Positions 926 through 11,614 of a stretch of 13,124 nt of DNA are shown piece after piece. The stretch is from an uncultured archaeon. GTDB lineage: Archaea > Asgardarchaeota > Heimdallarchaeia > Heimdallarchaeales > Kariarchaeaceae. The stretch covers positions 1-13,124 of the forward strand of contig CAZYCQ010000077.1 in the NCBI GenBank assembly GCA_964645535.1. Direction: 5' to 3'. Under the pieces are notes generated by a model that had not been told where the DNA came from, searched no databases, and worked only from the letters and a program-made list of their open reading frames with translations. The first letter of the stretch is position 1, and every line of letters begins with the position of its first letter. A program made the translations under genes and the position numbers.

Positions 926-2446
926 ATGTATAATGAGTACCAAATTCAGGCCAATGATCTGGTAGCAAATTTTGGCGAGGGGACGATGCCCGGTGTAATC
1001 TATGATACTGCAATCGTTGGTTCCTTGAAAGATAACGTTGACTCTCCCTTGTTTCCTTATCAGGTTGAATATGTCTTGAAACGGCAATATGGAGATGGGT
1101 CTTGGGGTGCACCCAATCCGCTTCCATATGACCGACTGATGTCAACCGCAGCAGTGCTGTATATGATGGTGGAATTGAATATCCACAAAAAACCTTTTTT
1201 TGAACCTTTTTTTGAAAAAGGAGTTGGATGGTTGGAAGAGAATTATCGTACGGCCATGGAATCCAAATACCCTCGAACAGTGGGGTTTGAATTCATTTAC
1301 CCTTATTTGATTTCAACCATTCTTAGTGGAAGTTCTTCACTTTCTGATAAGGTGCGTTTTTCAACCCTCGACAAATTGGTCGAACAGAAACTGGAGATTT
1401 TTGGTGAAGGCATATATCGTGTTCATACCCCTTTGGTATTTTCTGCTGAAGGGATCGTCAGGGATATTTCCCATGCCAACATGATTTCATCTTTGCAGTC
1501 TGAAAATGGTTCGTTGGGGGCATCGCCCTCTGCAACTACGGTACTCCTCAAGTATCCGATCTCAAATACACGTGCCAAACGACAGGCATTCCAATATCTC
1601 AAGGAATCGATCCTTCCCGACCAATCTGTTGTTCATTTTAAAGACTATACTTACATGAATATTGTCTATTCCTTATATCCCTTGTTCAAGGCAGGCTTTC
1701 AAATTGGATCTGGGACTGTTTTTCTGACTAACCGTATTCTGAATGGATGGACTGATTATGGTCTTTCATTTGGGAAGGCCTTTAAGGTTCCTGATGCTGA
1801 CGATACTTCGGTTGCATTGGTTGATCTTCATTACATGGGACTGCCGAATTTGGATCGATATGCTGAGGCTCTTAAATATTATGAGGCGGAAGACCATTAC
1901 AAGACCTATCCTGGAGAACTGGGTCAATCAATGCTGAACAACCTTCATGTCCTTGACTACCTATTGACGACTGGGAAAGAGGAAAACATCGAGAAAGGGG
2001 CTAAAGTTCTTCGTTTCATTGAGGAGAAGTTGCGAGATAACCCACATCAGTTGGGGAAATATCATTCTTCGTTGGCATACCAAATGGGGAGCATGCTTCT
2101 GTCAATGTTTCCTCATCTCTCTGAACATGCCCATCCCTACGTTATTCGATTGGAAGTCCTGCTTCGGGATTTCATTGAAGCTCCTGAAACCCATTATCTG
2201 ACAGATGAGGAATTGGCAGCATCTATTTTCGGGTTGCTTCATGCCCATCATCACGGTGTGGACATAAACTGTGATTTGGTTCGCCGCGGGTTTGAAATTT
2301 TGCGGGTTCGCACCCATGGAGGAAAATTGCCGGATTATGCCCCTCTTTGGATGTCTAAAGTTGCCTATTCCCCGACGCACATTGTCAGATCCAATGTTTT
2401 GGCTGGCTTGATGTACTATGAAAGAATGAAGGATGTTTGTTTCTGA
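926..2446 (+). CDS. Class II terpene cyclase, beta-gamma didomain diterpene cyclase (copalyl/halimadienyl/kolavenyl diphosphate synthase family)
   Basis: Ordered family motifs: YDTA, QYGDGSWG (QW repeat), DRLMSTAA, VGFEFIYP, LVFSAEG, QSENGSLGASPSAT, catalytic DADD (nt 1793-1804, D290-D293), NLHVL, KYHSSLAY (cf. KWHxSxxY), EELA, PLWMSKVAYSP. At 506 aa it matches bacterial CPS/Rv3377c-type enzymes and is too short for SHC/OSC. Confidence 0.9.
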   Translation: MYNEYQIQANDLVANFGEGTMPGVIYDTAIVGSLKDNVDSPLFPYQVEYVLKRQYGDGSWGAPNPLPYDRLMSTAAVLYMMVELNIHKKPFFEPFFEKGVGWLEENYRTAMESKYPRTVGFEFIYPYLISTILSGSSSLSDKVRFSTLDKLVEQKLEIFGEGIYRVHTPLVFSAEGIVRDISHANMISSLQSENGSLGASPSATTVLLKYPISNTRAKRQAFQYLKESILPDQSVVHFKDYTYMNIVYSLYPLFKAGFQIGSGTVFLTNRILNGWTDYGLSFGKAFKVPDADDTSVALVDLHYMGLPNLDRYAEALKYYEAEDHYKTYPGELGQSMLNNLHVLDYLLTTGKEENIEKGAKVLRFIEEKLRDNPHQLGKYHSSLAYQMGSMLLSMFPHLSEHAHPYVIRLEVLLRDFIEAPETHYLTDEELAASIFGLLHAHHHGVDINCDLVRRGFEILRVRTHGGKLPDYAPLWMSKVAYSPTHIVRSNVLAGLMYYERMKDVCF

Positions 2447-2469
2447 ATGCATTATTGGAAAAACTGCAT

Positions 2470-2500
2470 GTGACGATATTTGGTGACGATACGTTTAAAA
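2470..2500 (+). promoter_or_regulatory. TATA box (TTTAAAA, 2494-2500) preceded by a tandem 9-bp direct repeat GTGACGATA
   Basis: TATA begins 30 nt upstream of GTG2524, which fits a leaderless archaeal transcript. Exact repeats lie at 2470-2478 and 2483-2491. Confidence 0.55.
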
Positions 2501-2523
2501 TCTACAACATCCGCTGAAAATCC

Positions 2524-3510
2524 GTGTCTATGTTGGATTTTTTCCTGAATGAGTTCTATGCGCCCTCAATTTTGATCTTGGCTGGGATTCACCTTCTGAT
2601 ATTGCTGATATCCGCAAAATTAGACTTTTCTGCATTGCGATCCCTTGCACTTTCCTCTTTTCCGATGATATTGATGACTCTTCTGTTTCTTCAGCGGGCT
2701 GTGGACGCTGGTGTGAATTGGTATGGGGAAATCATGCCTCTTTCTATTCTTGTAACCTTATTCATTACTGAGTTCATGTTTTTCTCTTCAATGCAGAGCT
2801 ATATTGCAACCTATTCGAAAACTGAGCTTTGGTTGTCCATTTTCTATGCGACCTTCTTGCTTAATTGGCTTATTATTTTCGTTGATCACACCCTGACCAT
2901 TGGCAGTCTTCAACCGGAAAACATACTCTTCGTCAGATTTGCGGGATCGACTATGCTGAATTTGGCTTTGGCAGAAGCCTTGGCACTGTATTTTATTGGA
3001 AAATACATGTTCTACCCCGATTATCCATATATGTCAATTTTTGAACCGATTCTCTTCATCGTTTATGGGGTGGTGATGGGATTGAATTGGGGTGGGCTTT
3101 CCAATGGTTCCTATTTTACTCCGGAAGCTTTTCATACCTACGGCTTTTTCTTCCCTGAACCCTTTTGGCTATTTGGAACAATCACCGGCATTTTTGTGGT
3201 GGTTCCTCAGTTCTTGATTGCCTATTTCGGGAGAAAATATTCTCTTGAGATCCTGGAGGACCGAACCTTGCTTTCCTCCTTGGATCCTTATCTTGTGCCA
3301 AGGTTACGGTGGATTGGTCGTGCAACATATATATTTGCCATTGGTGTCACTCTTTCCTTCTTCATTCTTGTGGGTTCATTCCAATTCAACGTGGAGTTTT
3401 TGGCGATTTTCAGTCCATGGATTGCTTCCCTTTTATTCATAATGGTTTCTGCCATCTTCTATATGGCTTTTCAATCTCCGGAAACCTTACGAAAAATCGT
3501 CTCCAAATAA
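2524..3510 (+). CDS. Integral membrane protein of unknown function, ~9 predicted TM helices
   Basis: Long ORF with ~9 hydrophobic stretches, ending in an amphipathic basic tail FYMAFQSPETLRKIVSK. GTG start (or ATG2530). No enzyme motif recognised. Confidence 0.8.
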   Translation: MSMLDFFLNEFYAPSILILAGIHLLILLISAKLDFSALRSLALSSFPMILMTLLFLQRAVDAGVNWYGEIMPLSILVTLFITEFMFFSSMQSYIATYSKTELWLSIFYATFLLNWLIIFVDHTLTIGSLQPENILFVRFAGSTMLNLALAEALALYFIGKYMFYPDYPYMSIFEPILFIVYGVVMGLNWGGLSNGSYFTPEAFHTYGFFFPEPFWLFGTITGIFVVVPQFLIAYFGRKYSLEILEDRTLLSSLDPYLVPRLRWIGRATYIFAIGVTLSFFILVGSFQFNVEFLAIFSPWIASLLFIMVSAIFYMAFQSPETLRKIVSK

Positions 3511-3561: not shown

Positions 3562-5253
3562 TTGACTGATATCGAACGGTTTCACGCGTTGAAAAACGAG
3601 CTTGGGCGGTCTGGGGCTCGGCTGTCATATCGTGCAGACCGATCCCGGCGGATTGTGGAAATCAGTATCTCCAATTCTTTTGACTTGATTGATCTGACTC
3701 CTTTGACTGATTTCAAGGCCTTGAAAACCGTCATTCTTGACAACAATACGTTTACAAGACTTGACCTGTCTCCCCTGAAGGATCTGCCAATGCTTTCTCA
3801 CTTGGAGTTGGCTGAAAATGATGGTCTTGAAATGCTTGACCTATCTCCCCTGACTAACCTTCCATTTCTCCATCGTCTCATCATCAACCGTAATTCAATC
3901 AGGGTATTGAAGACCAAGCCTCTAGGTGACATGCACAGTCTTGTCCACCTTAATCTAAGAGAAGTAGGGGGTATCAACAACACCAATTTCTCGCGAAGAT
4001 GGTATATCTATGATTATTGGAACCGCAATCGATACTACCAGGACTGCGAAGCTAGGGGACTGGAACGCTATGCTCTTGACAGGGAGGATTGTCAAAGTAC
4101 TCTGCATACTCTCGATCTGCGTTTTTTGGAAAACCATCCTTCCCTTCGATACGTAGATCTCTCCTACAATCGTGGAACTCGAAAATATATTCTTCCAAGG
4201 AGACCACCTGCCGCACTGGAGTATATTGATCTGTCTGTGAATGAGCTCGGCAGCCTTGATTTCAGGACTCTTGCCACTCCTTACATGCACGAAATCATTG
4301 TAAAGGAAGGGGGATTGGATCGTGTTTCTTTGGAAATGGATTCCGATTTCAAAAGTCTCGGCAAACTCAACCTGTCCCATAATCGATTGGAAGAACTTGA
4401 TCTCTCCCCGCTCGAACCTCTCTACAACCTCCATACGTTGGATTTGTCCCGAAACCGACTGAAATCCATTGATCTCCGACCTCTTGAAGGAAAGCTTAAT
4501 CTGGTCTATCTTAGTCTTGAATCCAATGATTTGCGGCATGTTGATCTCTCTCCCCTGAAAAACCTTCCCAGACTACAGGTTCTCAGACTTGGCGACAATC
4601 TGCTTGAGACGATTGATCTCTCTCCGTTGGCCACTGTTCCCGAACTCAGGGTAATCCGGCTCACCCGCAACAGGTTGGTGGAAGTGGATATCGATCCACT
4701 TAGCTTCTGTCGTAAGTTGCAGCGGGTTCAGCTTGCCAGAAATCGTCTCCGGAGGCTCTCTTTGGAACCTCTTCGGGACATTGTCACCTTGGAGGAAATC
4801 AATTTGGACAGAAATGATTTCGAGGAACTGGATATCTCTGCAATTGAATCCATGCCGCACATTGATTTTATCGACTTACGAGATACCACGCGTCACACCA
4901 AAATTGATTTTACCCCTGTCTTAACATCTGAGGCGAGCTGGGTTCAATTCGATGAAGGCATCAATATCGAAATCGATCCTGAAAAGCTGAAGGACGCAGA
5001 TATCAAGAATTCCTCTTTGTTGAATGATCCAATTGTTGAAGATGCCATTGATTTCAAGAACAACTCGGACAAATTGGTTGAGGCAAAAAATCCATACATT
5101 GCCACTCGTGCGATTCAAGAAAATATGGATCTTGATGAGCTCTTGATTCTCCGTTTTATTGAGAACCGTCCTGAAGTTGCATCCATGCTTTCACGCCGGA
5201 TCAATGAATTGAAACGGATGCAGGAACAGGAAAAAAAGAAGAACAAATCATAG
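3562..5253 (+). CDS. Leucine-rich repeat protein (~16 repeats of ~24 aa, LxxLxLxxNxLxxLDLSPL) with an internal island and a helical C-terminal domain
   Basis: Repeats such as LGKLNLSHNRLEELDLSPLEPLYN, LHTLDLSRNRLKSIDLRPLEGKLN and LQVLRLGDNLLETIDLSPLATVPE. TTG start. No signal peptide or TM segment seen. Confidence 0.93.
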   Translation: MTDIERFHALKNELGRSGARLSYRADRSRRIVEISISNSFDLIDLTPLTDFKALKTVILDNNTFTRLDLSPLKDLPMLSHLELAENDGLEMLDLSPLTNLPFLHRLIINRNSIRVLKTKPLGDMHSLVHLNLREVGGINNTNFSRRWYIYDYWNRNRYYQDCEARGLERYALDREDCQSTLHTLDLRFLENHPSLRYVDLSYNRGTRKYILPRRPPAALEYIDLSVNELGSLDFRTLATPYMHEIIVKEGGLDRVSLEMDSDFKSLGKLNLSHNRLEELDLSPLEPLYNLHTLDLSRNRLKSIDLRPLEGKLNLVYLSLESNDLRHVDLSPLKNLPRLQVLRLGDNLLETIDLSPLATVPELRVIRLTRNRLVEVDIDPLSFCRKLQRVQLARNRLRRLSLEPLRDIVTLEEINLDRNDFEELDISAIESMPHIDFIDLRDTTRHTKIDFTPVLTSEASWVQFDEGINIEIDPEKLKDADIKNSSLLNDPIVEDAIDFKNNSDKLVEAKNPYIATRAIQENMDLDELLILRFIENRPEVASMLSRRINELKRMQEQEKKKNKS

Positions 5254-6477
5254 CTGTTTGAAAACCTCCTCTTTGATTTCAAGCAAGGTTTTGCTGATAT
5301 TGTGATCCAACAGGTTCCAATCGACATTGCCTAAAGGTAGACTGACAATCCATATTGTAACACCATATTTGTGGAATTTGAAGATCACTGGCTTGCTTGT
5401 TTCCTTCTCCACTCCCGGGTAGAACAGCACTCCGAACTTTGAGTTTTGGAACAGGGCATAGCTAAGGATTTGATAGAAATCGGCATGAACACGCAATTCC
5501 TTCTGGGACAGGTCTACAAACTTGTATTTCGCATCCCCAACCATAGTTATATTTCTTCTTTCCTCGGTGATGAGTATGTCTGGTCGGTATACAATTAATT
5601 TGGCATTCTTTGCGGTCACTCGTAATGAGACGTTGGATCTTACGGAAAATTCCCTTAAGTAGTCTGCAACAACTCTAAACACAAATGTTTCATATAGCTT
5701 GTTCATGTTCAGAATAAAGGTAGAAAAGACAACATTCCCGACCTGTTGCCCAATGGAATGTCCACTAGCGATCAGCAGACAAAGGGTCAGGATGGGTTGA
5801 TAATGATTGTCCTGCCTTTTCAGTCCTTCGATTGCATTTTCAATTTCTTGAATGGTGAAATCTCTTGATGTTACCTTTTTCAGTTTATGGTATTGCCTTA
5901 CAAATTGTTTTGAAAGGCTAGGATTCATTCCTCGGACAATTGAAATTGATTTGCGTATGGTAAATTTGAGGATCTGGTTCAGAATTTGATCTTCACTGAA
6001 ATCATCTGTTTCTGAAATGATCTTTATGGATCCTGAAATATTTTCTCTCAGGGTTTTGATCCTATCGATTTTCCCACGGACATTTGTTCCCTTGATGAGT
6101 TTCTGATGGTATCTCCTTCTGATCAATCTTGGAACGAACTCCTCAATGAGTTTGAGGAAATGATGAAAAACATACAATCCCTCTTCTTCAATTCGTTTCA
6201 GTTTGATTGTATGGGAATGAGACCAAAGCTTACTAGAGGAACGCGCAATCAGGTAAAATATGGAGATGTATGGAATTTTCGGCATGAGTCGGATTTTCAC
6301 TCTGCTTAGACTGATGAACCCTGCCATTGGTCCGACGCGAATTCGATATTTTGTTCCTCCCAATGGATGGAGTGAGATCTGTTTTGTTTGTTCCATCACC
6401 TTTCTCATGTACCTCAAATCCTTTTTTCCAAGATCCAGATCAATTTCTCCAAATTCTCTGACTCTAATTTCCTTCAT
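5248..6477 (-). CDS. mcrC: McrC-family modification-dependent restriction endonuclease subunit
   Basis: N-terminal MAGFISL...IRLMPKI, VRGKID, DFSEDQILNQILK, MNKLYETFV, PD-(D/E)xK core RPDILI...GDAKYK, ADFYQILSY, GVLFYP. Its ATG directly abuts the mcrB TGA, with GGTGA just upstream. Confidence 0.92.
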   Translation of the reverse strand: MKEIRVREFGEIDLDLGKKDLRYMRKVMEQTKQISLHPLGGTKYRIRVGPMAGFISLSRVKIRLMPKIPYISIFYLIARSSSKLWSHSHTIKLKRIEEEGLYVFHHFLKLIEEFVPRLIRRRYHQKLIKGTNVRGKIDRIKTLRENISGSIKIISETDDFSEDQILNQILKFTIRKSISIVRGMNPSLSKQFVRQYHKLKKVTSRDFTIQEIENAIEGLKRQDNHYQPILTLCLLIASGHSIGQQVGNVVFSTFILNMNKLYETFVFRVVADYLREFSVRSNVSLRVTAKNAKLIVYRPDILITEERRNITMVGDAKYKFVDLSQKELRVHADFYQILSYALFQNSKFGVLFYPGVEKETSKPVIFKFHKYGVTIWIVSLPLGNVDWNLLDHNISKTLLEIKEEVFKQL

Positions 6478-8016
6478 TCATTCACCCAAAAAATTCAGGA
6501 CAAGTCCTTCTCTGGAAACCTTATCTCCATTTTCTCTAAAGATCTCCATTCCCAAAATGTCATTGATGAATTCCCTGTCTTGGAAAAAGATGTCCTCTAA
6601 AAGGGGGATGATCTCATAATAGATCATGTCGCCGATGGTCTTTTCCTCCAAATCCTTGAGCATGAAATACGAATGGCCGATTCTGGCATCTGGCTCGACT
6701 TGTTCCATGATTTTCGAATTGATCCTATTGAATAGTTCAATCAATTTTTCAACAATTGGATTGTTCCCCATTCCCAAGTCATCAAAATGCTCTTGAATGA
6801 GAGAATCATCGGGTAGCACTTCAACAAACAGAAATCTCCTTCTGATTGCCAAGTCCATCTCTGCCAGAGATCGATCGGAAGTGTTCATTGTTCCTATGAT
6901 GTATAGATTGTTGGGAACCGCTATTTTCTTCCCATGAGTGATTTCCAGAGGTTCATTTCTGTACTCCAAGGAATATAGGAGTTCTCCGAAAACTTTTGGA
7001 AGATTGGCTCTGTTGATTTCATCAATTATTAGGCAATAGGATTTGTCGGGGTTCTTTTTTGCCATTTCCACAAGGTTGAGGAAATGTCCATTTCTGAATT
7101 CATAGTTAACCTTGCCATTGACTAATTTCGGAAATATTCCTCCAAAGAAGTCCTCATACCCGTAACTAGGATGAAACTGCACAAACTTTACTTGGTCGCA
7201 TTTTTCAGCAACCTTTCTTGCCAGAAAGGTCTTGCCAGTGCCTGGAACCCCATAATAGATCATCTGCTTTTTCTGTTGGAGAAGTTTCCAATGATCATTG
7301 ACAATGGGGTCTCTTTCTTCAATCATAGTGCCTTCTCTTTCCAGATCCTTCAAGAATGCATCAAAAGTGTAATTTTCATCCACTTCTTCACCTGGTTGTT
7401 GAAGTTTTCTTTTCAACCTTTCCAGTTCTTCGATTGCCTCGAGCAGGAAAGGAATCTCAATCTTTTGAATTTCACTTTCTTGGATGCTGATCCCCATAAA
7501 TCCTGGTGGTGTCGCTTTTACATTTGAACTGGCGGTTGGGTTCAAATTCCATTCAATCTCCAATTCCTCCTTTATCAAAAAGGGTTCTATAATGATCATG
7601 TGAAAACTCTTCTCCTTATTTTCAAGGAGGTATTTGTACAGGTTTTCCACTGAATAGACTGCATATCTGTGAATATATCGGGCAAGTTCAAGTATGCCTT
7701 CTCTTGTTTTAGGAATCCTGATATTCTCTACTTTGCGGATTTTCCCAATGACGTCAACCTTTGTCAATCCTTGATCCCCAAGATCTTCAAATATCCATTT
7801 TTCTTTTTCTCGTGTTCCCCAAACTTCATGGAGGTTTGTCTTGATCTGTCGTTTTGTTTCTCTCTTTGGAAATTTCGGGATAAGGGCAATAAACTCATGG
7901 TCGCTTTTGTATTCTCCTCCTCCGACAACGACACAAATCTTTCCCTTTTTCATGGAAATGTTTACGGATCCCCAAACAAGATAGGTGTCTTCAATAAATT
8001 CTGGTATCTCTCCCAT
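6478..8016 (-). CDS. mcrB: McrB-family AAA+ GTPase with an uncharacterised N-terminal domain
   Basis: Walker A GVPGTGKT, FVQFHPSYGYEDF, Walker B IIDEINRAN, VFGEL, McrB signature GTMNTSDRS (NxxD), AIRRRF, IGHSYF. Confidence 0.94.
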   Translation of the reverse strand: MGEIPEFIEDTYLVWGSVNISMKKGKICVVVGGGEYKSDHEFIALIPKFPKRETKRQIKTNLHEVWGTREKEKWIFEDLGDQGLTKVDVIGKIRKVENIRIPKTREGILELARYIHRYAVYSVENLYKYLLENKEKSFHMIIIEPFLIKEELEIEWNLNPTASSNVKATPPGFMGISIQESEIQKIEIPFLLEAIEELERLKRKLQQPGEEVDENYTFDAFLKDLEREGTMIEERDPIVNDHWKLLQQKKQMIYYGVPGTGKTFLARKVAEKCDQVKFVQFHPSYGYEDFFGGIFPKLVNGKVNYEFRNGHFLNLVEMAKKNPDKSYCLIIDEINRANLPKVFGELLYSLEYRNEPLEITHGKKIAVPNNLYIIGTMNTSDRSLAEMDLAIRRRFLFVEVLPDDSLIQEHFDDLGMGNNPIVEKLIELFNRINSKIMEQVEPDARIGHSYFMLKDLEEKTIGDMIYYEIIPLLEDIFFQDREFINDILGMEIFRENGDKVSREGLVLNFLGE

Positions 8017-8153: not shown

Positions 8154-9083
8154 CTAGGTGTTGAAGGTAATTCCTAATGAACGGACCAGTTCCTTGTATC
8201 TGTTCCGGATGGTGACTTCAGTGACTGTTGCAGTCTCTGCAATTTCTCTCTGTGTCCTTTGGTCTCCTTCAAGGATCCCTGCAAGGTAAATTGCAGCAGC
8301 TGCTAGACCAACTGGATCTTTTCCAATGGTGATTCTGTTTCTCTTTGCCTTGTCCACAATGTCCCTTGCTGTCTTGACGACACGTCCACCCAATCGCAGT
8401 TCCGCTCCGAATCTTACTACATAGCTGGTAGGGTCGGTAAGTGGAATCTTGAGTCCAAGTTCATTGATCAGTAACCTGTAACACCTTCCGATATCCTTTT
8501 TGCTGGTTCGGGAATGCTTAGCGAATTCGTCAAGGGGTCTGGGCACTCTTCTTTGCCTTGCAGCAGCATAGGTTGCGGCGGCAATCATTGCTTCGATTGA
8601 CCTTCCTCTGATCAACCGTTGGTTGAGTGCTTTTCTGTAGATTACTGACGCTGTTTCCTTGACACTTTGTGGCAGACCCAATTGGCTGGCAATTCTATCT
8701 AGTTCCCGCATGGCTTGTGTAAGGTTTCTATCGGTGGCGGAATTGACCCTGGTTCTGGTCTGCCACTTCCTCAATCGATAAATCTGTGATCTCTGCTGAG
8801 GACTGAGTTTTCTTCCATATGCATCCCTGTCTTCAATCCCGATCTGTGTGGAAAGCCCTTTGTCATGCCGGGTGTAAGTGGTTTGTGCTCCCACCCTCGC
8901 TCTTTTGGCTCGTTCTTCGGAGGAATATGCCCTCCATTCTGGAGAATCATCTATGATGCTTTCCTCGATGACTGCTCCGCAATTCTTACAGATGACCTCA
9001 CCTCGGTGATGGTCATGGATAATGGATGTGCTCCCGCAATCGGGGCATCTTTCTTCGGTTTCTTGTTTGGCTGGTTTTGACAT
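8154..9083 (-). CDS. tfb: Archaeal transcription initiation factor IIB (TFB)
   Basis: Zn ribbon CPDC...CKNC, PEWRAY, DKGLST, RLRKWQ, two cyclin repeats (RGRS; GKDPVGLAAAAIY), TQREIA...VTEVTIRNRYKEL. Start moved to ATG9083 because GAGGTG (9096-9091) lies 7 nt upstream. Confidence 0.98.
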   Translation of the reverse strand: MSKPAKQETEERCPDCGSTSIIHDHHRGEVICKNCGAVIEESIIDDSPEWRAYSSEERAKRARVGAQTTYTRHDKGLSTQIGIEDRDAYGRKLSPQQRSQIYRLRKWQTRTRVNSATDRNLTQAMRELDRIASQLGLPQSVKETASVIYRKALNQRLIRGRSIEAMIAAATYAAARQRRVPRPLDEFAKHSRTSKKDIGRCYRLLINELGLKIPLTDPTSYVVRFGAELRLGGRVVKTARDIVDKAKRNRITIGKDPVGLAAAAIYLAGILEGDQRTQREIAETATVTEVTIRNRYKELVRSLGITFNT

Positions 9084-9158
9084 TCTGCTGCACCTCAAAA
9101 ATTTTGTCGGTTCCCCTTGACAAAAAACTTATATACAAATTACAATGCTCACTTTCCA

Positions 9159-9174: not shown

Positions 9175-9345
9175 TACTGGTAGCAAAAACCTATTACTGG
9201 TTATGTCTTGTTCCCCAATATTCCTATATCTGTCATCTATTTTAAGGTTAACGGTAGCCTTTTAAGGTTTCGATTTCGTATTTTTCACCGCATCAAGGCA
9301 AGTTCGAGACGCCATCTTTATCAATCGCCGATTTTCGCATTACTT

Positions 9346-10578
9346 GTGCACCTGAACAGAGAAGAAGAGGCCATCCTTCAAGGAGAGCAGGGGGAAGCCT
9401 TGGCTACCGCGCTCTCACTATTGGTCGATGTCGGTGACTTTTATGAAGCCTCTCATTTGTTACCCATCGGATCTGCTCATATTTCGGGCGTTTCATATTT
9501 GACGGGTGGGGATGGGCTGATTGACCAGTTGGATTATTTTGTGGATCTGGGTGCTACTGTGCGCGTTTATTCCACGTTGAACCCATCCGGCATGGATCGT
9601 AACCATTGGCAGGATCATTACATTGACTTGGAATTTGCAACCAAACAGTTTCGTATCCTTGACAACTTCAAACGTTTGGGGGTCATAACCACACTCAGTT
9701 GTACACCCTATGATTTTGGACACATTCTGACGAAGGGTCAACATGTAGCTTGGGCCGAATCCTCTGCCATTACCTTCGCCAACTCGTTCTTTGGAGCTAG
9801 GACAAACAAGGAGGATGCCCTTTCTGTATTGGCTGCCGCCATCGTTGGCAAAACCCCCAATTATGGGTTCCATCTTTCAGAAAACCGAATTCCGAATGTT
9901 AGAGTCAAGGTGGAGGCCGCCATTCATGACTATTCCGATTATTCCGTCTTGGGAGAGGTTGTAGGCATGGCATTCAATCATCATCCTTTCCCATATGGTG
10001 CCATACCATTGTTTGAGGGCATTCGCAATCCTCGACCCCATCATCTTAAAGGTCTCGGAGCTGCCTTGGCATCGTTCGGAACGCAGTTGTTCCATGTCGA
10101 AGGTGTAACTCCGGAGGTCGAATTGTATGAAAATGTCTCCGATTTTGAGGATGAATTGGTGGTGGAACAATCTCAATTGGATGAAATCTATGAACACCTC
10201 AAGCCTGATTTCGATCCCAAAATTGCCGTAATAGGATGTCCCAATGCGAATTTGGAAGAGATCCGCGAAGTCGTCCAGGCTATTGGCAATCGAAGACTCA
10301 AAAATGGAAAGGAATTTTGGGTATTTACCAATCGTGCACAAAAAGGAATGGCTGAGGCCGTAGGACTTGTGGAAACGCTCGAAAAGGCAGGTGTAAAGAT
10401 CTTGGTTGATACTTGTCCTGAAGTGACCCCTTATGACAAGGATCGTTTTGATCGGATTTTGACCAATTCCATCAAGGCACAACATTATATATCTGCGCCT
10501 AGCCTCAACGGAATCCCCACATACCTGCTCCCATTAAGGAAGTGTGTGGATCTGCTTTTTGAGGAGGTTGATGGATGA
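9346..10578 (+). CDS. Aconitase X catalytic subunit; probable phosphomevalonate dehydratase large subunit (archaeal mevalonate pathway)
   Basis: Family N-terminus (M)HLNREEEAILQGEQG from GTG9346. Motifs HISGVSY, TLNP, SCTPY, AWAESSA, NSFFGARTN, GKTPNYGFH, GCP, DTC, TNSIKAQHY, with three Fe-S-ligand-type Cys. Followed by the swiveling-domain subunit. Confidence 0.88.
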   Translation: MHLNREEEAILQGEQGEALATALSLLVDVGDFYEASHLLPIGSAHISGVSYLTGGDGLIDQLDYFVDLGATVRVYSTLNPSGMDRNHWQDHYIDLEFATKQFRILDNFKRLGVITTLSCTPYDFGHILTKGQHVAWAESSAITFANSFFGARTNKEDALSVLAAAIVGKTPNYGFHLSENRIPNVRVKVEAAIHDYSDYSVLGEVVGMAFNHHPFPYGAIPLFEGIRNPRPHHLKGLGAALASFGTQLFHVEGVTPEVELYENVSDFEDELVVEQSQLDEIYEHLKPDFDPKIAVIGCPNANLEEIREVVQAIGNRRLKNGKEFWVFTNRAQKGMAEAVGLVETLEKAGVKILVDTCPEVTPYDKDRFDRILTNSIKAQHYISAPSLNGIPTYLLPLRKCVDLLFEEVDG

Positions 10579-10988
10579 AGCTCATTGGTAAGCCGCTAAG
10601 GTCCATGGGGGATATGGTTATTGAAGGAGAGGCAATTGTAACCTCTCAACCTATCACTCTATTGGGATTCGTTGATGCCACTACTGGAAAGATTGTGGAA
10701 GAAGATCATGAACTGTTTGGTCAAAGCATTACTGGGAAGATTTTTGTTTTTCCCAAGGGAGTGGGAAGTACAGTTGGTCCGTATGTCCTTCTTAATCTCA
10801 AAAAAAATGGCAAGGCACCCTTGGCTATCATCAATCGGGAATCTGATCAGGGGACGATCTCTGGGTGTTCCGTTGCAAAAATTCCAATGATTTATCGATT
10901 GGACAGGGATCCTGTTACATCTATTCGTACTGGAGACAGGGTCAAGATTGTTGTTGCACACGGGTCTGCCATTGTTGAAGTTATGTAG
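10575..10988 (+). CDS. Aconitase X swiveling-domain subunit (DUF126); probable phosphomevalonate dehydratase small subunit
   Basis: EGEAIV, GFVDATTGKI, HELFGQSITGKIFVFPKGVGSTVG (catalytic Ser motif), GKAPLAII, IPM. ATGA overlap with the upstream gene and an SD-like GGAGGT. Confidence 0.9.
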   Translation: MKLIGKPLRSMGDMVIEGEAIVTSQPITLLGFVDATTGKIVEEDHELFGQSITGKIFVFPKGVGSTVGPYVLLNLKKNGKAPLAIINRESDQGTISGCSVAKIPMIYRLDRDPVTSIRTGDRVKIVVAHGSAIVEVM

Positions 10989-11538
10989 TGGTTGATGGCT
11001 TGGTGACAAGGATATACCTGAGTAACTCCTCGAATGCTTGATTAATCCCCTCTCCCGTCATTGCAGAGGTTTCAAATGACTTGATCTCTGTATAGGTATC
11101 ATGGAAATTCTCCTTGATCCATCTGACCATTTTTTCCATATCTTCACGGGAAACTTTCCGTTCACTTTCCAAATCGATTTTGTTTCCAACAATGAAGAAA
11201 GGTACCATACTGATGGCTTGAGCTGCCCATTCTGCCCACATTTTGAGATTTTCTAGACTCGATGGGTTGGTTACATCAAAAATGGCTAGGATCCCCGCGG
11301 CTCCTCTCAGATAAACCTCTGCTCGAGGCACTCTATACGCCTCTCCAGCAAGATCCCAAATGACTGCCTTCCCTTCCCCTTCCTCCAAGTCAAATGATTT
11401 TACCGAAAAATCCGATCCTAGTGTCTTGATATGGCTAGTTTTGAAACCCAAGCCTAGATACCTTCTGCGAATGGATGTCTTGCCAACCCTGTCGCTTCCT
11501 ATCAAGACCAATTTTACCTGATATGTATCTCTGGACAT
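10981..11538 (-). CDS. Ras-superfamily (Rab-like) small GTPase
   Basis: KLVLIGSDRVGKTS (G1), TLGSDF (G2), WDLAGE (G3), GNKID (G4), ETSAMTG (G5), GINQAF. ATG11538 is preferred over TTG11571. No C-terminal Cys. Confidence 0.93.
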   Translation of the reverse strand: MSRDTYQVKLVLIGSDRVGKTSIRRRYLGLGFKTSHIKTLGSDFSVKSFDLEEGEGKAVIWDLAGEAYRVPRAEVYLRGAAGILAIFDVTNPSSLENLKMWAEWAAQAISMVPFFIVGNKIDLESERKVSREDMEKMVRWIKENFHDTYTEIKSFETSAMTGEGINQAFEELLRYILVTKPSTTT

Positions 11539-11614
11539 TATGATTGTCAATTCCTTTTTATTTTCACCCAAATTAAATCTTAACTTAATGAAGTAATGAT
11601 TGGCTGTTTTTCTT

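Follow-up and report, generated by a model that had tools for sequence, protein, structure and literature searches.

Does a member of the Heimdallarchaeia encode a working class II diterpene cyclase, and if so, what would the enzyme make and where would its product go? The question is raised by an open reading frame (ORF) in a 13,124-nt stretch of DNA (the window), which is the complete contig C77 (CAZYCQ010000077.1) of a 3.62-Mb, 176-contig, 89.4% complete assembly, GCA_964645535.1 (here G000), from an uncultured Kariarchaeaceae-type archaeon. We favour, at a probability of roughly 80%, the reading that the encoded protein, P0001, is a working class II diterpene cyclase of the type of Rv3377c, the halimadienyl diphosphate synthase of Mycobacterium tuberculosis (MtHPS), as judged from its sequence and modelled fold. 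As a further member of a described and partly characterised family, the cyclase itself is of low novelty. What is new here is a conserved partner protein with about nine transmembrane segments (9-TM), the wider occurrence of Rv3378c-like transferase genes beside Heimdallarchaeial cyclases, and the likely absence of such a transferase from this species. The features at issue in the cyclase gene are as follows.

926-2446, + strand: P0001, predicted class II (beta-gamma) diterpene cyclase, Rv3377c/MtHPS type; 506 aa, ATG start, uninterrupted ORF
1793-1804, + strand: DxDD general-acid motif, D290-A291-D292-D293, in which D292 is the counterpart of MtHPS D295
2366-2368, + strand: codon of Y481, aligned with the MtHPS catalytic base Y479 (KTLY479 versus KVAY481)

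Family placement and archaeal origin

By sequence and predicted fold, the ORF at 926-2446 can be taken as a genuine Rv3377c-type class II diterpene cyclase gene of a Kariarchaeaceae-type Heimdallarchaeon. In a phmmer search of the PDB, the best match of P0001 is Rv3377c itself (6vpt, E 2.8e-26) and is full-length (residues 17-497 against 14-495); labdadienyl and copalyl diphosphate synthases (CPSs) of plants, fungi and bacteria come next (9b99, E 7e-18; 3pya, 8e-16; 5bp8, 1.8e-9), and squalene-hopene cyclase is reached only at E 0.01. Pfam and NCBIfam scans of P0001 gave nothing significant (SQHop_cyclase_C, 14 bits against a cut-off of 26.1; TIGR01507, 14.9 bits against 431), which is why its relatives are annotated as “hypothetical protein”, and we therefore took the family placement from the PDB sequence search and the fold. 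An AlphaFold2 model built from a 42-sequence alignment (P0001 and 41 relatives found among 1.84 billion protein representatives) has the two-domain beta-gamma fold, with a predicted local distance difference test score (pLDDT) of 93.2 and a predicted template modelling score (pTM) of 0.93. Its best structural match is again 6vpt (template modelling score, TM-score, 0.80/0.84; root mean square deviation, rmsd, 3.6 Å; Foldseek E 1e-19), ahead of PtmT2 (5bp8, TM-score 0.76), Tpn2 and plant beta-gamma domains; 7xkx gives a TM-score of 0.78. Identity as a squalene-hopene or oxidosqualene cyclase was rejected on the sub-threshold scores and on the fold matches to 1sqc and 1w6j, which fall far below those to diterpene cyclases.

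The original prediction had proposed an archaeal class II diterpene cyclase of the CPS/Rv3377c family, to be compared with CPS, Rv3377c, squalene-hopene and oxidosqualene cyclases, with a complete beta-gamma motif series and an intact DADD in which D292 is the catalytic acid; the placement above agrees with it, and the motifs do so as well. The DADD lies within V-P-D-A-D-D-T-S-V, so that the residue after the motif is T294, and both D290 and D292, the middle Asp, are invariant in the 42-sequence alignment. The other family motifs are present: Y26-D27-T28-A29, Q54..D57-G58-S59-W60-G61, H341 and K378, and towards the C-terminus E428-E429 and W475..K478..Y481..P483. Invariant in addition are Y26, D27, G61, T74, E175, E331, K378, S382 and K478, with H341, W475, P483 and the D57-G58-S59-W60 stretch at least 90% conserved. 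The CPSs (AtCPS, 3pya; PtmT2, 5bp8; PvCPS, 9q3i) have in common with P0001 the beta-gamma class II fold, the DxDD acid and the substrate geranylgeranyl diphosphate (GGPP; predicted in the case of P0001), but carry the His of a His/Asn catalytic-base dyad where P0001 has F172; P0001 moreover has no alpha domain.

Cyclases of this kind have already been reported from Asgard archaea. McShea, De Anda, Brocks, Welander and Baker (bioRxiv 10.1101/2025.02.07.637177) describe 64 archaeal cyclases, of which 31 are Asgard and almost all of these Heimdallarchaeial (Hodarchaeales, Kariarchaeaceae), and show conversion of GGPP to halimadienyl diphosphate by purified OLS20947.1 (LC2) and WAPZ01000551.1 (S146_22). 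The Asgard enzymes, like Rv3377c, called for co-expression with GroEL/ES and trigger factor. Their Table S1 holds JALTSK010000185.1 (Brothers volcano), marked “not tested”; its printed sequence is that of our database match P0004, 89% identical to P0001, and the string given for it in their motif figure, G-L-S-F-G-K-A-F-K-V-P-D-A-D-D-T-S-V-A-L-V-D-L-H-Y-M-G, is identical in P0001. Two further entries are from the same genus, WAKA01000042.1 (68%) and JALUTL010000122.1 (59% identical to P0001), and four are more distant (JAJRQD010000059.1 = G045, JAJRWK010000064.1 = G042, JAOUKW010000326.1 = G047 and JASBSB010000004.1 = G055); all six were recovered independently by us. The Asgard cyclases of that study and P0001 have in common the DxD[D] motif, H341 and, where MtHPS has W380, an aromatic residue; the exact P0001 sequence is absent from Table S1, and none of the 13-member clade to which P0001 belongs is among the assayed enzymes. 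Their text mentions a transferase homolog only for S146_22, and leaves the conserved 9-TM neighbour unmentioned. The remark in the original prediction that halimadienyl-forming cyclases were known from Asgard lineages, and its caution that the family might not be new, thus proved correct, down to the 89%-identical ortholog in Table S1. With Asgard halimadienyl diphosphate synthases already reported and close orthologs in that table, the present cyclase adds little in itself.

Matches to the cyclase at E 1e-10 or better occur in nine of 400 Asgard species genomes, six of which (this one included) belong to one family, f1. We built a maximum-likelihood tree of 46 sequences by a quick IQ-TREE search, with support from the Shimodaira-Hasegawa-like approximate likelihood ratio test (SH-aLRT) only and a midpoint root. 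P0001 falls in its 13-member clade with SH-aLRT 100 on a stem of 1.28 changes per column; all identifiable members are Heimdallarchaeia, and the clade takes in the WAKA, JAJRQD, JAJRWK, JAOUKW and JASBSB sequences. The assayed Lokiarchaeal enzyme (Loki CR_4) is in a neighbouring clade, and two S146_22 proteins form long unresolved branches. LC2 (OLS20947.1) is not among the 46 sequences; likeness of its motif in the published alignment suggests that it belongs to the neighbouring clade with Loki CR_4. P0017 (517 aa), taken up as the assayed LC2 enzyme, turned out not to be LC2.

The nearest non-archaeal relatives of P0001 are bacterial (Chloroflexota, Actinomycetota, Sorangium), and the left end of the window is lower in G+C. 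Both would fit a bacterial gene on a chimeric or contaminant contig, and a chimeric bacterial left arm was the scenario that the original prediction had named as refuting it. The genes around the cyclase bear on this point:

146-826, + strand: HAD-IA phosphatase P0003 (HAD_2, E 1.3e-26), 99 nt upstream of the cyclase gene
2524-3510, + strand: 9-TM membrane protein P0002 (MEM), 77 nt downstream of the cyclase gene
3562-5253, + strand: cytoplasmic leucine-rich-repeat (LRR) protein (LRR_8, E 2.7e-29), 51 nt after the MEM gene
5248-8016, − strand: McrBC restriction genes, McrC and McrB (AAA_5)
8154-9098, − strand: TFIIB
9208-10988, + strand: split AcnX pair, large subunit (456 aa) and small “swivel” subunit (137 aa)
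10981-11571, − strand: Ras-family GTPase

Three further assemblies, from other samples, have the order HAD, cyclase, MEM, LRR, then TFIIB, AcnX and Ras: a 205-kb Logan contig of an unrelated run (L002, DRR684994; cyclase 82% identical) and the same-genus genomes G053 (68%) and G054 (59%). The lower G+C is confined to AT-rich intergenic spacers, and the relatives above 35% identity that bear a record name or genome handle are all Heimdallarchaeia, the database-only clusters in that range being nameless. Because the same neighbours stand in the same order in independent assemblies, a chimeric left arm is excluded; the window is Asgard and the contig archaeal and non-chimeric, and we consider a bacterial source for the gene extremely improbable.

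Predicted product and its alternatives

If P0001 works as Rv3377c does, it would bind GGPP, D292 would protonate the terminal C14=C15 double bond, and the substrate would bicyclise to the labda-13-en-8-yl cation; after hydride and methyl shifts, Y481 would remove the C6 proton to give halima-5,13-dienyl diphosphate, as with Rv3377c and the two assayed Asgard enzymes. Every archaeon makes GGPP for its lipids, and G000 has two genes for trans-prenyl diphosphate (polyprenyl) synthases, so a supply of substrate is plausible. P0001 very probably acts on GGPP, and we hold it highly likely that the product is a bicyclic C20 diphosphate of some kind.

Which one is formed depends, in MtHPS, on a handful of residues (PMC9585517): D295 is the acid, H341 its activator and Y328 a steric helper; Y479 acts as the base, abstracting the C6 proton from the halimenyl cation, and its change to Phe gives labda-8,13-dienyl diphosphate; His at position 171 in place of F171 gives copalyl diphosphate; and W380, in the (D/E)KW motif, shields C9-H. 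Beyond being the best match in sequence and fold, Rv3377c has nearly the same length as P0001 (501 versus 506 aa) and the same beta-gamma architecture, and our HMMER and family alignments give identical counterparts in P0001 for its acid (D292), H341, Y328, F171 (F172) and Y479 (Y481). The equivalent of Y481 is Tyr in 36 of the 42 family sequences and in 11/11 of the P0001 clade; H341, aligned with H341 of MtHPS, is His in 39/42. The two proteins differ in that Rv3377c has DCDT and DKW where P0001 has a canonical DADD and G377-K378-Y379. At this last motif the Lys is invariant, the acidic residue is absent from the clade of P0001, and Tyr occupies the W380 position in 16/42 of the family and in 10/11 of the clade (the remaining one has Phe); most relatives have DKW. 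The active S146_22 enzyme has Y, F and N at the equivalents of F171, Y328 and H341 and keeps W380 and Y479.

Since the steering residues of P0001 are identical to those of MtHPS, and since the divergent S146_22 enzyme still makes halimadienyl diphosphate, the residue signature favours halima-5,13-dienyl (tuberculosinyl) diphosphate as the product. We put the odds of this somewhat above even and no higher, because of the GKY change and because the assayed enzymes all lie outside the clade. An active cyclase that turns GGPP into some other bicyclic diphosphate (of the labda-7,13- or 8,13-dienyl, copalyl, or clerodane/kolavenyl type) is unlikely. In its favour, the residue corresponding to W380, the shield of C9-H in MtHPS, is Tyr in nearly the whole clade, the changes Y479F, Y328F and F171H each redirect the MtHPS product (PMC9585517), and no assayed enzyme belongs to the clade. 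Within the clade, position 172 (F171 of MtHPS) varies among F, H and Y, which hints at product diversity, and by analogy with MtHPS the members with His there (e.g. G042 and G055) might yield a product other than that of P0001. Against another product stand the three residues Y481, Y328 and F172, which are the same as in MtHPS, and the Asgard enzyme that differs from MtHPS at three such positions and still forms halimadienyl diphosphate. Rv3378c-like genes also adjoin cyclases of this very clade, and mycobacterial Rv3378c uses halimadienyl diphosphate.

A substrate other than free GGPP seems quite improbable to us. The candidates would be the geranylgeranyl chains of an unsaturated archaeal lipid precursor (geranylgeranylglyceryl phosphate or digeranylgeranylglyceryl phosphate) or C25 or C15 diphosphates, and the 9-TM neighbour would present the membrane-bound substrate; class II chemistry requires no more of its substrate than a terminal isoprene double bond, the cyclase's one constant neighbour is a membrane protein, and G000 has two prenyl synthases. 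On the other side, K378 and K478, presumably the lysines with which class II diterpene cyclases bind the diphosphate, are invariant across the 42 sequences, related Asgard enzymes accept GGPP, and the size and fold of P0001 fit C20 better than C15 or C30 enzymes. We give still less credence to a catalytically dead or repurposed P0001, such as a lipid-binding protein. It would be in keeping with the two of four Asgard homologs that gave no product in vitro, and with a genome in which the downstream enzyme of mycobacterial type was not found; but all the catalytic residues are intact, the ORF is full-length and without stops, and the motifs are kept in orthologs at 89, 82, 68 and 59% identity, which fits purifying selection.

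Several observations weigh against the favoured reading of P0001 as a working cyclase of MtHPS type and against the route drawn from it. Half of the four assayed Asgard enzymes were inactive in vitro, WAPZ01000470.1 and the Lokiarchaeal OLS12628.1 giving no product (bioRxiv 10.1101/2025.02.07.637177). All three assayed Asgard enzymes in our tree lie outside the long-stemmed clade of P0001. P0001 itself is only about 22-28% identical to assayed Asgard enzymes, about 22-30% to the two active ones, and ∼24% to Rv3377c. Single substitutions, such as Y479F and F171H in MtHPS, can flip the product of a class II enzyme (PMC9585517), and the hydroxyl of Y379 could serve as an alternative base and so alter the product. 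The HAD phosphatase adjoins the cyclase within this genus only (G000, L002 and G053), and any part of MEM in the fate of the product is conjectural.

Rv3378c-type transferases in relatives and their likely absence from this genome

In M. tuberculosis the Rv3377c gene is paired with Rv3378c, and this pairing is repeated in Heimdallarchaeia: an Rv3378c homolog adjoins the cyclase in G042, G045, G047 and the JGI metagenome locus L006, whose cyclases are clade members 38-40% identical to P0001. The homolog matches tuberculosinyl-adenosine transferase (PDB 3wqk) at E 2.3e-9, with a D-G-T-R-R motif in common. Transferases of this type thus stand beside the cyclase in several Kariarchaeaceae-type genomes beyond S146_22, which supports a nucleoside-lipid product there. 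A profile of the Rv3378c-like family gave strong matches in seven of the 400 Asgard genomes, including three other members of the genus of G000. In these three the gene is unlinked to the cyclase and at a different site each time (L055, G053:C82, 4042-4971; L056, G054:C214, 3108-4031; L057, G055:C4, 8200-9102), and its distribution within the genus resembles that of an accessory gene that moves or is often lost.

Neither the profile nor three single-protein queries, nor tblastn taken as far as E 10, found an Rv3378c homolog in the 89.4% complete G000 assembly. For one site the comparison is direct: the genes that flank the transferase of G053 have orthologs in G000 (85% and 65% identical) that end 13 nt apart on contig C30, and because the syntenic site is so cleanly empty, the absence there is real. 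The transferase is likely absent from the whole G000 genome. Without an Rv3378c-type transferase, the mycobacterial route to a halimadienyl nucleoside is closed to the product, which implies an end product in this species unlike the nucleoside lipid proposed for S146_22. In G000 the product would most likely be stripped of its diphosphate, and the resulting free alcohol would enter the membrane; the HAD phosphatase encoded next to the cyclase is a candidate enzyme for this step, and the conserved 9-TM neighbour may also receive, sense or export the product. A species with the cyclase and the 9-TM protein but without the transferase offers a natural test of whether the halimane, free or dephosphorylated, serves a function by itself.

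P0003 could dephosphorylate the cyclase product; it belongs to the generic beta-phosphoglucomutase/sugar-phosphatase/diphosphatase group. A known parallel is the HAD-class II drimenol synthases (AsDMS; 9m7d, 9mhs), in which the class II cyclase comes with a HAD phosphatase that would remove the diphosphate with no need of a class I enzyme. AsDMS, however, is a fusion, whereas the HAD phosphatase and cyclase of G000 are separate genes linked within one genus only; the fold match of AsDMS to P0001 is weak (E about 1e-3), and the phosphatase of G000 is of the generic type just named. We did not adopt the HAD phosphatase as a dedicated stand-in for a class I enzyme, given the one-genus linkage and given G053, which holds both the HAD gene and a transferase and in which the phosphatase is therefore no simple transferase replacement.

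Two loci of other Asgard genomes deserve mention beside these. The gene of the active cyclase WAPZ01000551.1 (L036, G079:C551) is followed 18 nt later by that of a 436-aa membrane protein (2042-3352) with a sub-threshold UbiA prenyltransferase match (E 4e-7), which could be a different downstream enzyme for halimadienyl diphosphate in S146_22. In an Asgard genome of the same class (L058, G078:C390, 2008-4948), a 616-aa protein with a weak alpha-alpha-toroid prenyltransferase match is directly followed by an Rv3378c-like gene (profile E 2e-92); the two probably form another, divergent cyclase-transferase pair, one not picked up by the P0001 query.

The 9-TM protein and the remaining neighbours

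MEM is the conserved neighbour of the cyclase. The two genes lie on one contig and at most 2 kb apart in all six species genomes that hold both, and likewise in L006 and in the Logan contig L002, while the other neighbours are not conserved across these genomes. Their arrangement differs: adjacent on the same strand in G000, L002, G053 and G054; convergent in G045; with MEM upstream and one gene between in G047; and with MEM upstream and two genes between in G042 and L006. As the genomes are kin, these amount to about four independent arrangements, not nine, and it is through four such arrangements that a protein restricted to Heimdallarchaeia tracks the cyclase. On the scale of the 400-genome scans, MEM homologs occur in nine genomes, all in families f1 and f4; searches of the protein database with MEM, as single sequence and as profile, retrieved only 4-5 close relatives. 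There are exceptions to the pairing: G055 has a divergent cyclase and no 9-TM gene, the contigs of G043 and G052 end beside the 9-TM gene, and in G044 the 9-TM gene sits in a GTPase module without a cyclase, its contig extending about 3.9 kb further.

Pfam found nothing meaningful in 11 members of the MEM family (DUF4407 and EccD, at E above 0.007). Alignment of these 11 sequences gives P72, W115, G141, G182, P211, P228, D254 and P255 as invariant, and the near absence of conserved polar residues makes a receptor, carrier or scaffold likelier than an enzyme. A UbiA-type prenyltransferase was rejected: the protein lacks Asp-rich motifs, and its single conserved acidic residue (D254) is in a loop. 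In a model from the same alignment (pLDDT 85.8, pTM 0.85), residues 64-328 form the last seven helices, which two others precede, and a short terminal amphipathic helix. A structural search with VIA-align returned G protein-coupled receptors (GPCRs) as 49 of the top 50 matches, plus one designed soluble GPCR-like fold; the best match is the adhesion receptor ADGRL3 (Z 16.4, rmsd 3.8 Å over 222/234 residues), at a score to be read against the Z of ∼14 that helical bundles typically reach by arrangement alone. Foldseek matches to GPCRs are weak (E about 1e-3, TM-score about 0.5), and there is no sequence similarity to GPCRs. We regard a GPCR-like fold of residues 64-328 as a lead from modelling. 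From the distribution of Lys and Arg we infer an N-terminus outside and a C-terminus inside; on that topology, a beta-hairpin in an outer loop would take the position of GPCR loop 2, a basic inner loop with D254-P255 that of loop 3, and the terminal helix that of helix 8. A predicted complex of cyclase and MEM scored 0.15 against a mark of 0.32, and is used neither for nor against an interaction.

In family f4, the 9-TM gene belongs to a fixed string of genes for an Arf-family GTPase (Arf, E 2e-39, with a 130-aa N-terminal extension and a faint G-alpha match), a 151-aa protein, the 9-TM protein and a longin-like protein (Intu_longin_1, E 6e-4). The string is found at L027 (G042:C266, 285-6255), in L006 (7977-13733) and at L105 (G044:C229, 904-4044), and the module is also present in G043; an Rv3378c-like gene and the cyclase follow it in G042 and L006, but not in G044. 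The GTPase, 151-aa and longin-like partners were not detectable near the cyclase in G000. One bold reading would have MEM serve the halimane product specifically, as its receptor, flippase or scaffold, such that Heimdallarchaeia couple a cyclic diterpenoid to seven-transmembrane (7TM) and small-GTPase signalling or trafficking, with the pathway of G000 rewired by loss of the transferase and gain of the HAD and LRR genes. We think this improbable; were it true, the MEM-GTPase module would be an archaeal forerunner of lipid-sensing 7TM/G-protein systems.

The LRR protein has no signal peptide, no transmembrane segment and a charged C-terminal tail. Its orthologs directly follow MEM in L002 (89% identical), G053 (77%) and G054 (66%) and are absent from the cyclase loci of more distant relatives. 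Within the genus it is thus better conserved than the cyclase (82, 68 and 59% in the same three) and the 9-TM protein (66, 50 and 32%). The McrBC genes beyond it form a variable insertion: at this place L002 carries a 455-aa gene unrelated to them, and in G053 and G054 LRR is followed directly by TFIIB. The split AcnX pair, 6.7 kb from the cyclase, is syntenic within the genus (L002 and G053). Two-subunit AcnX is presumably the phosphomevalonate dehydratase that archaea use in the modified mevalonate pathway; in that case, a gene for isoprenoid precursors sits on the same contig at that distance from the cyclase.

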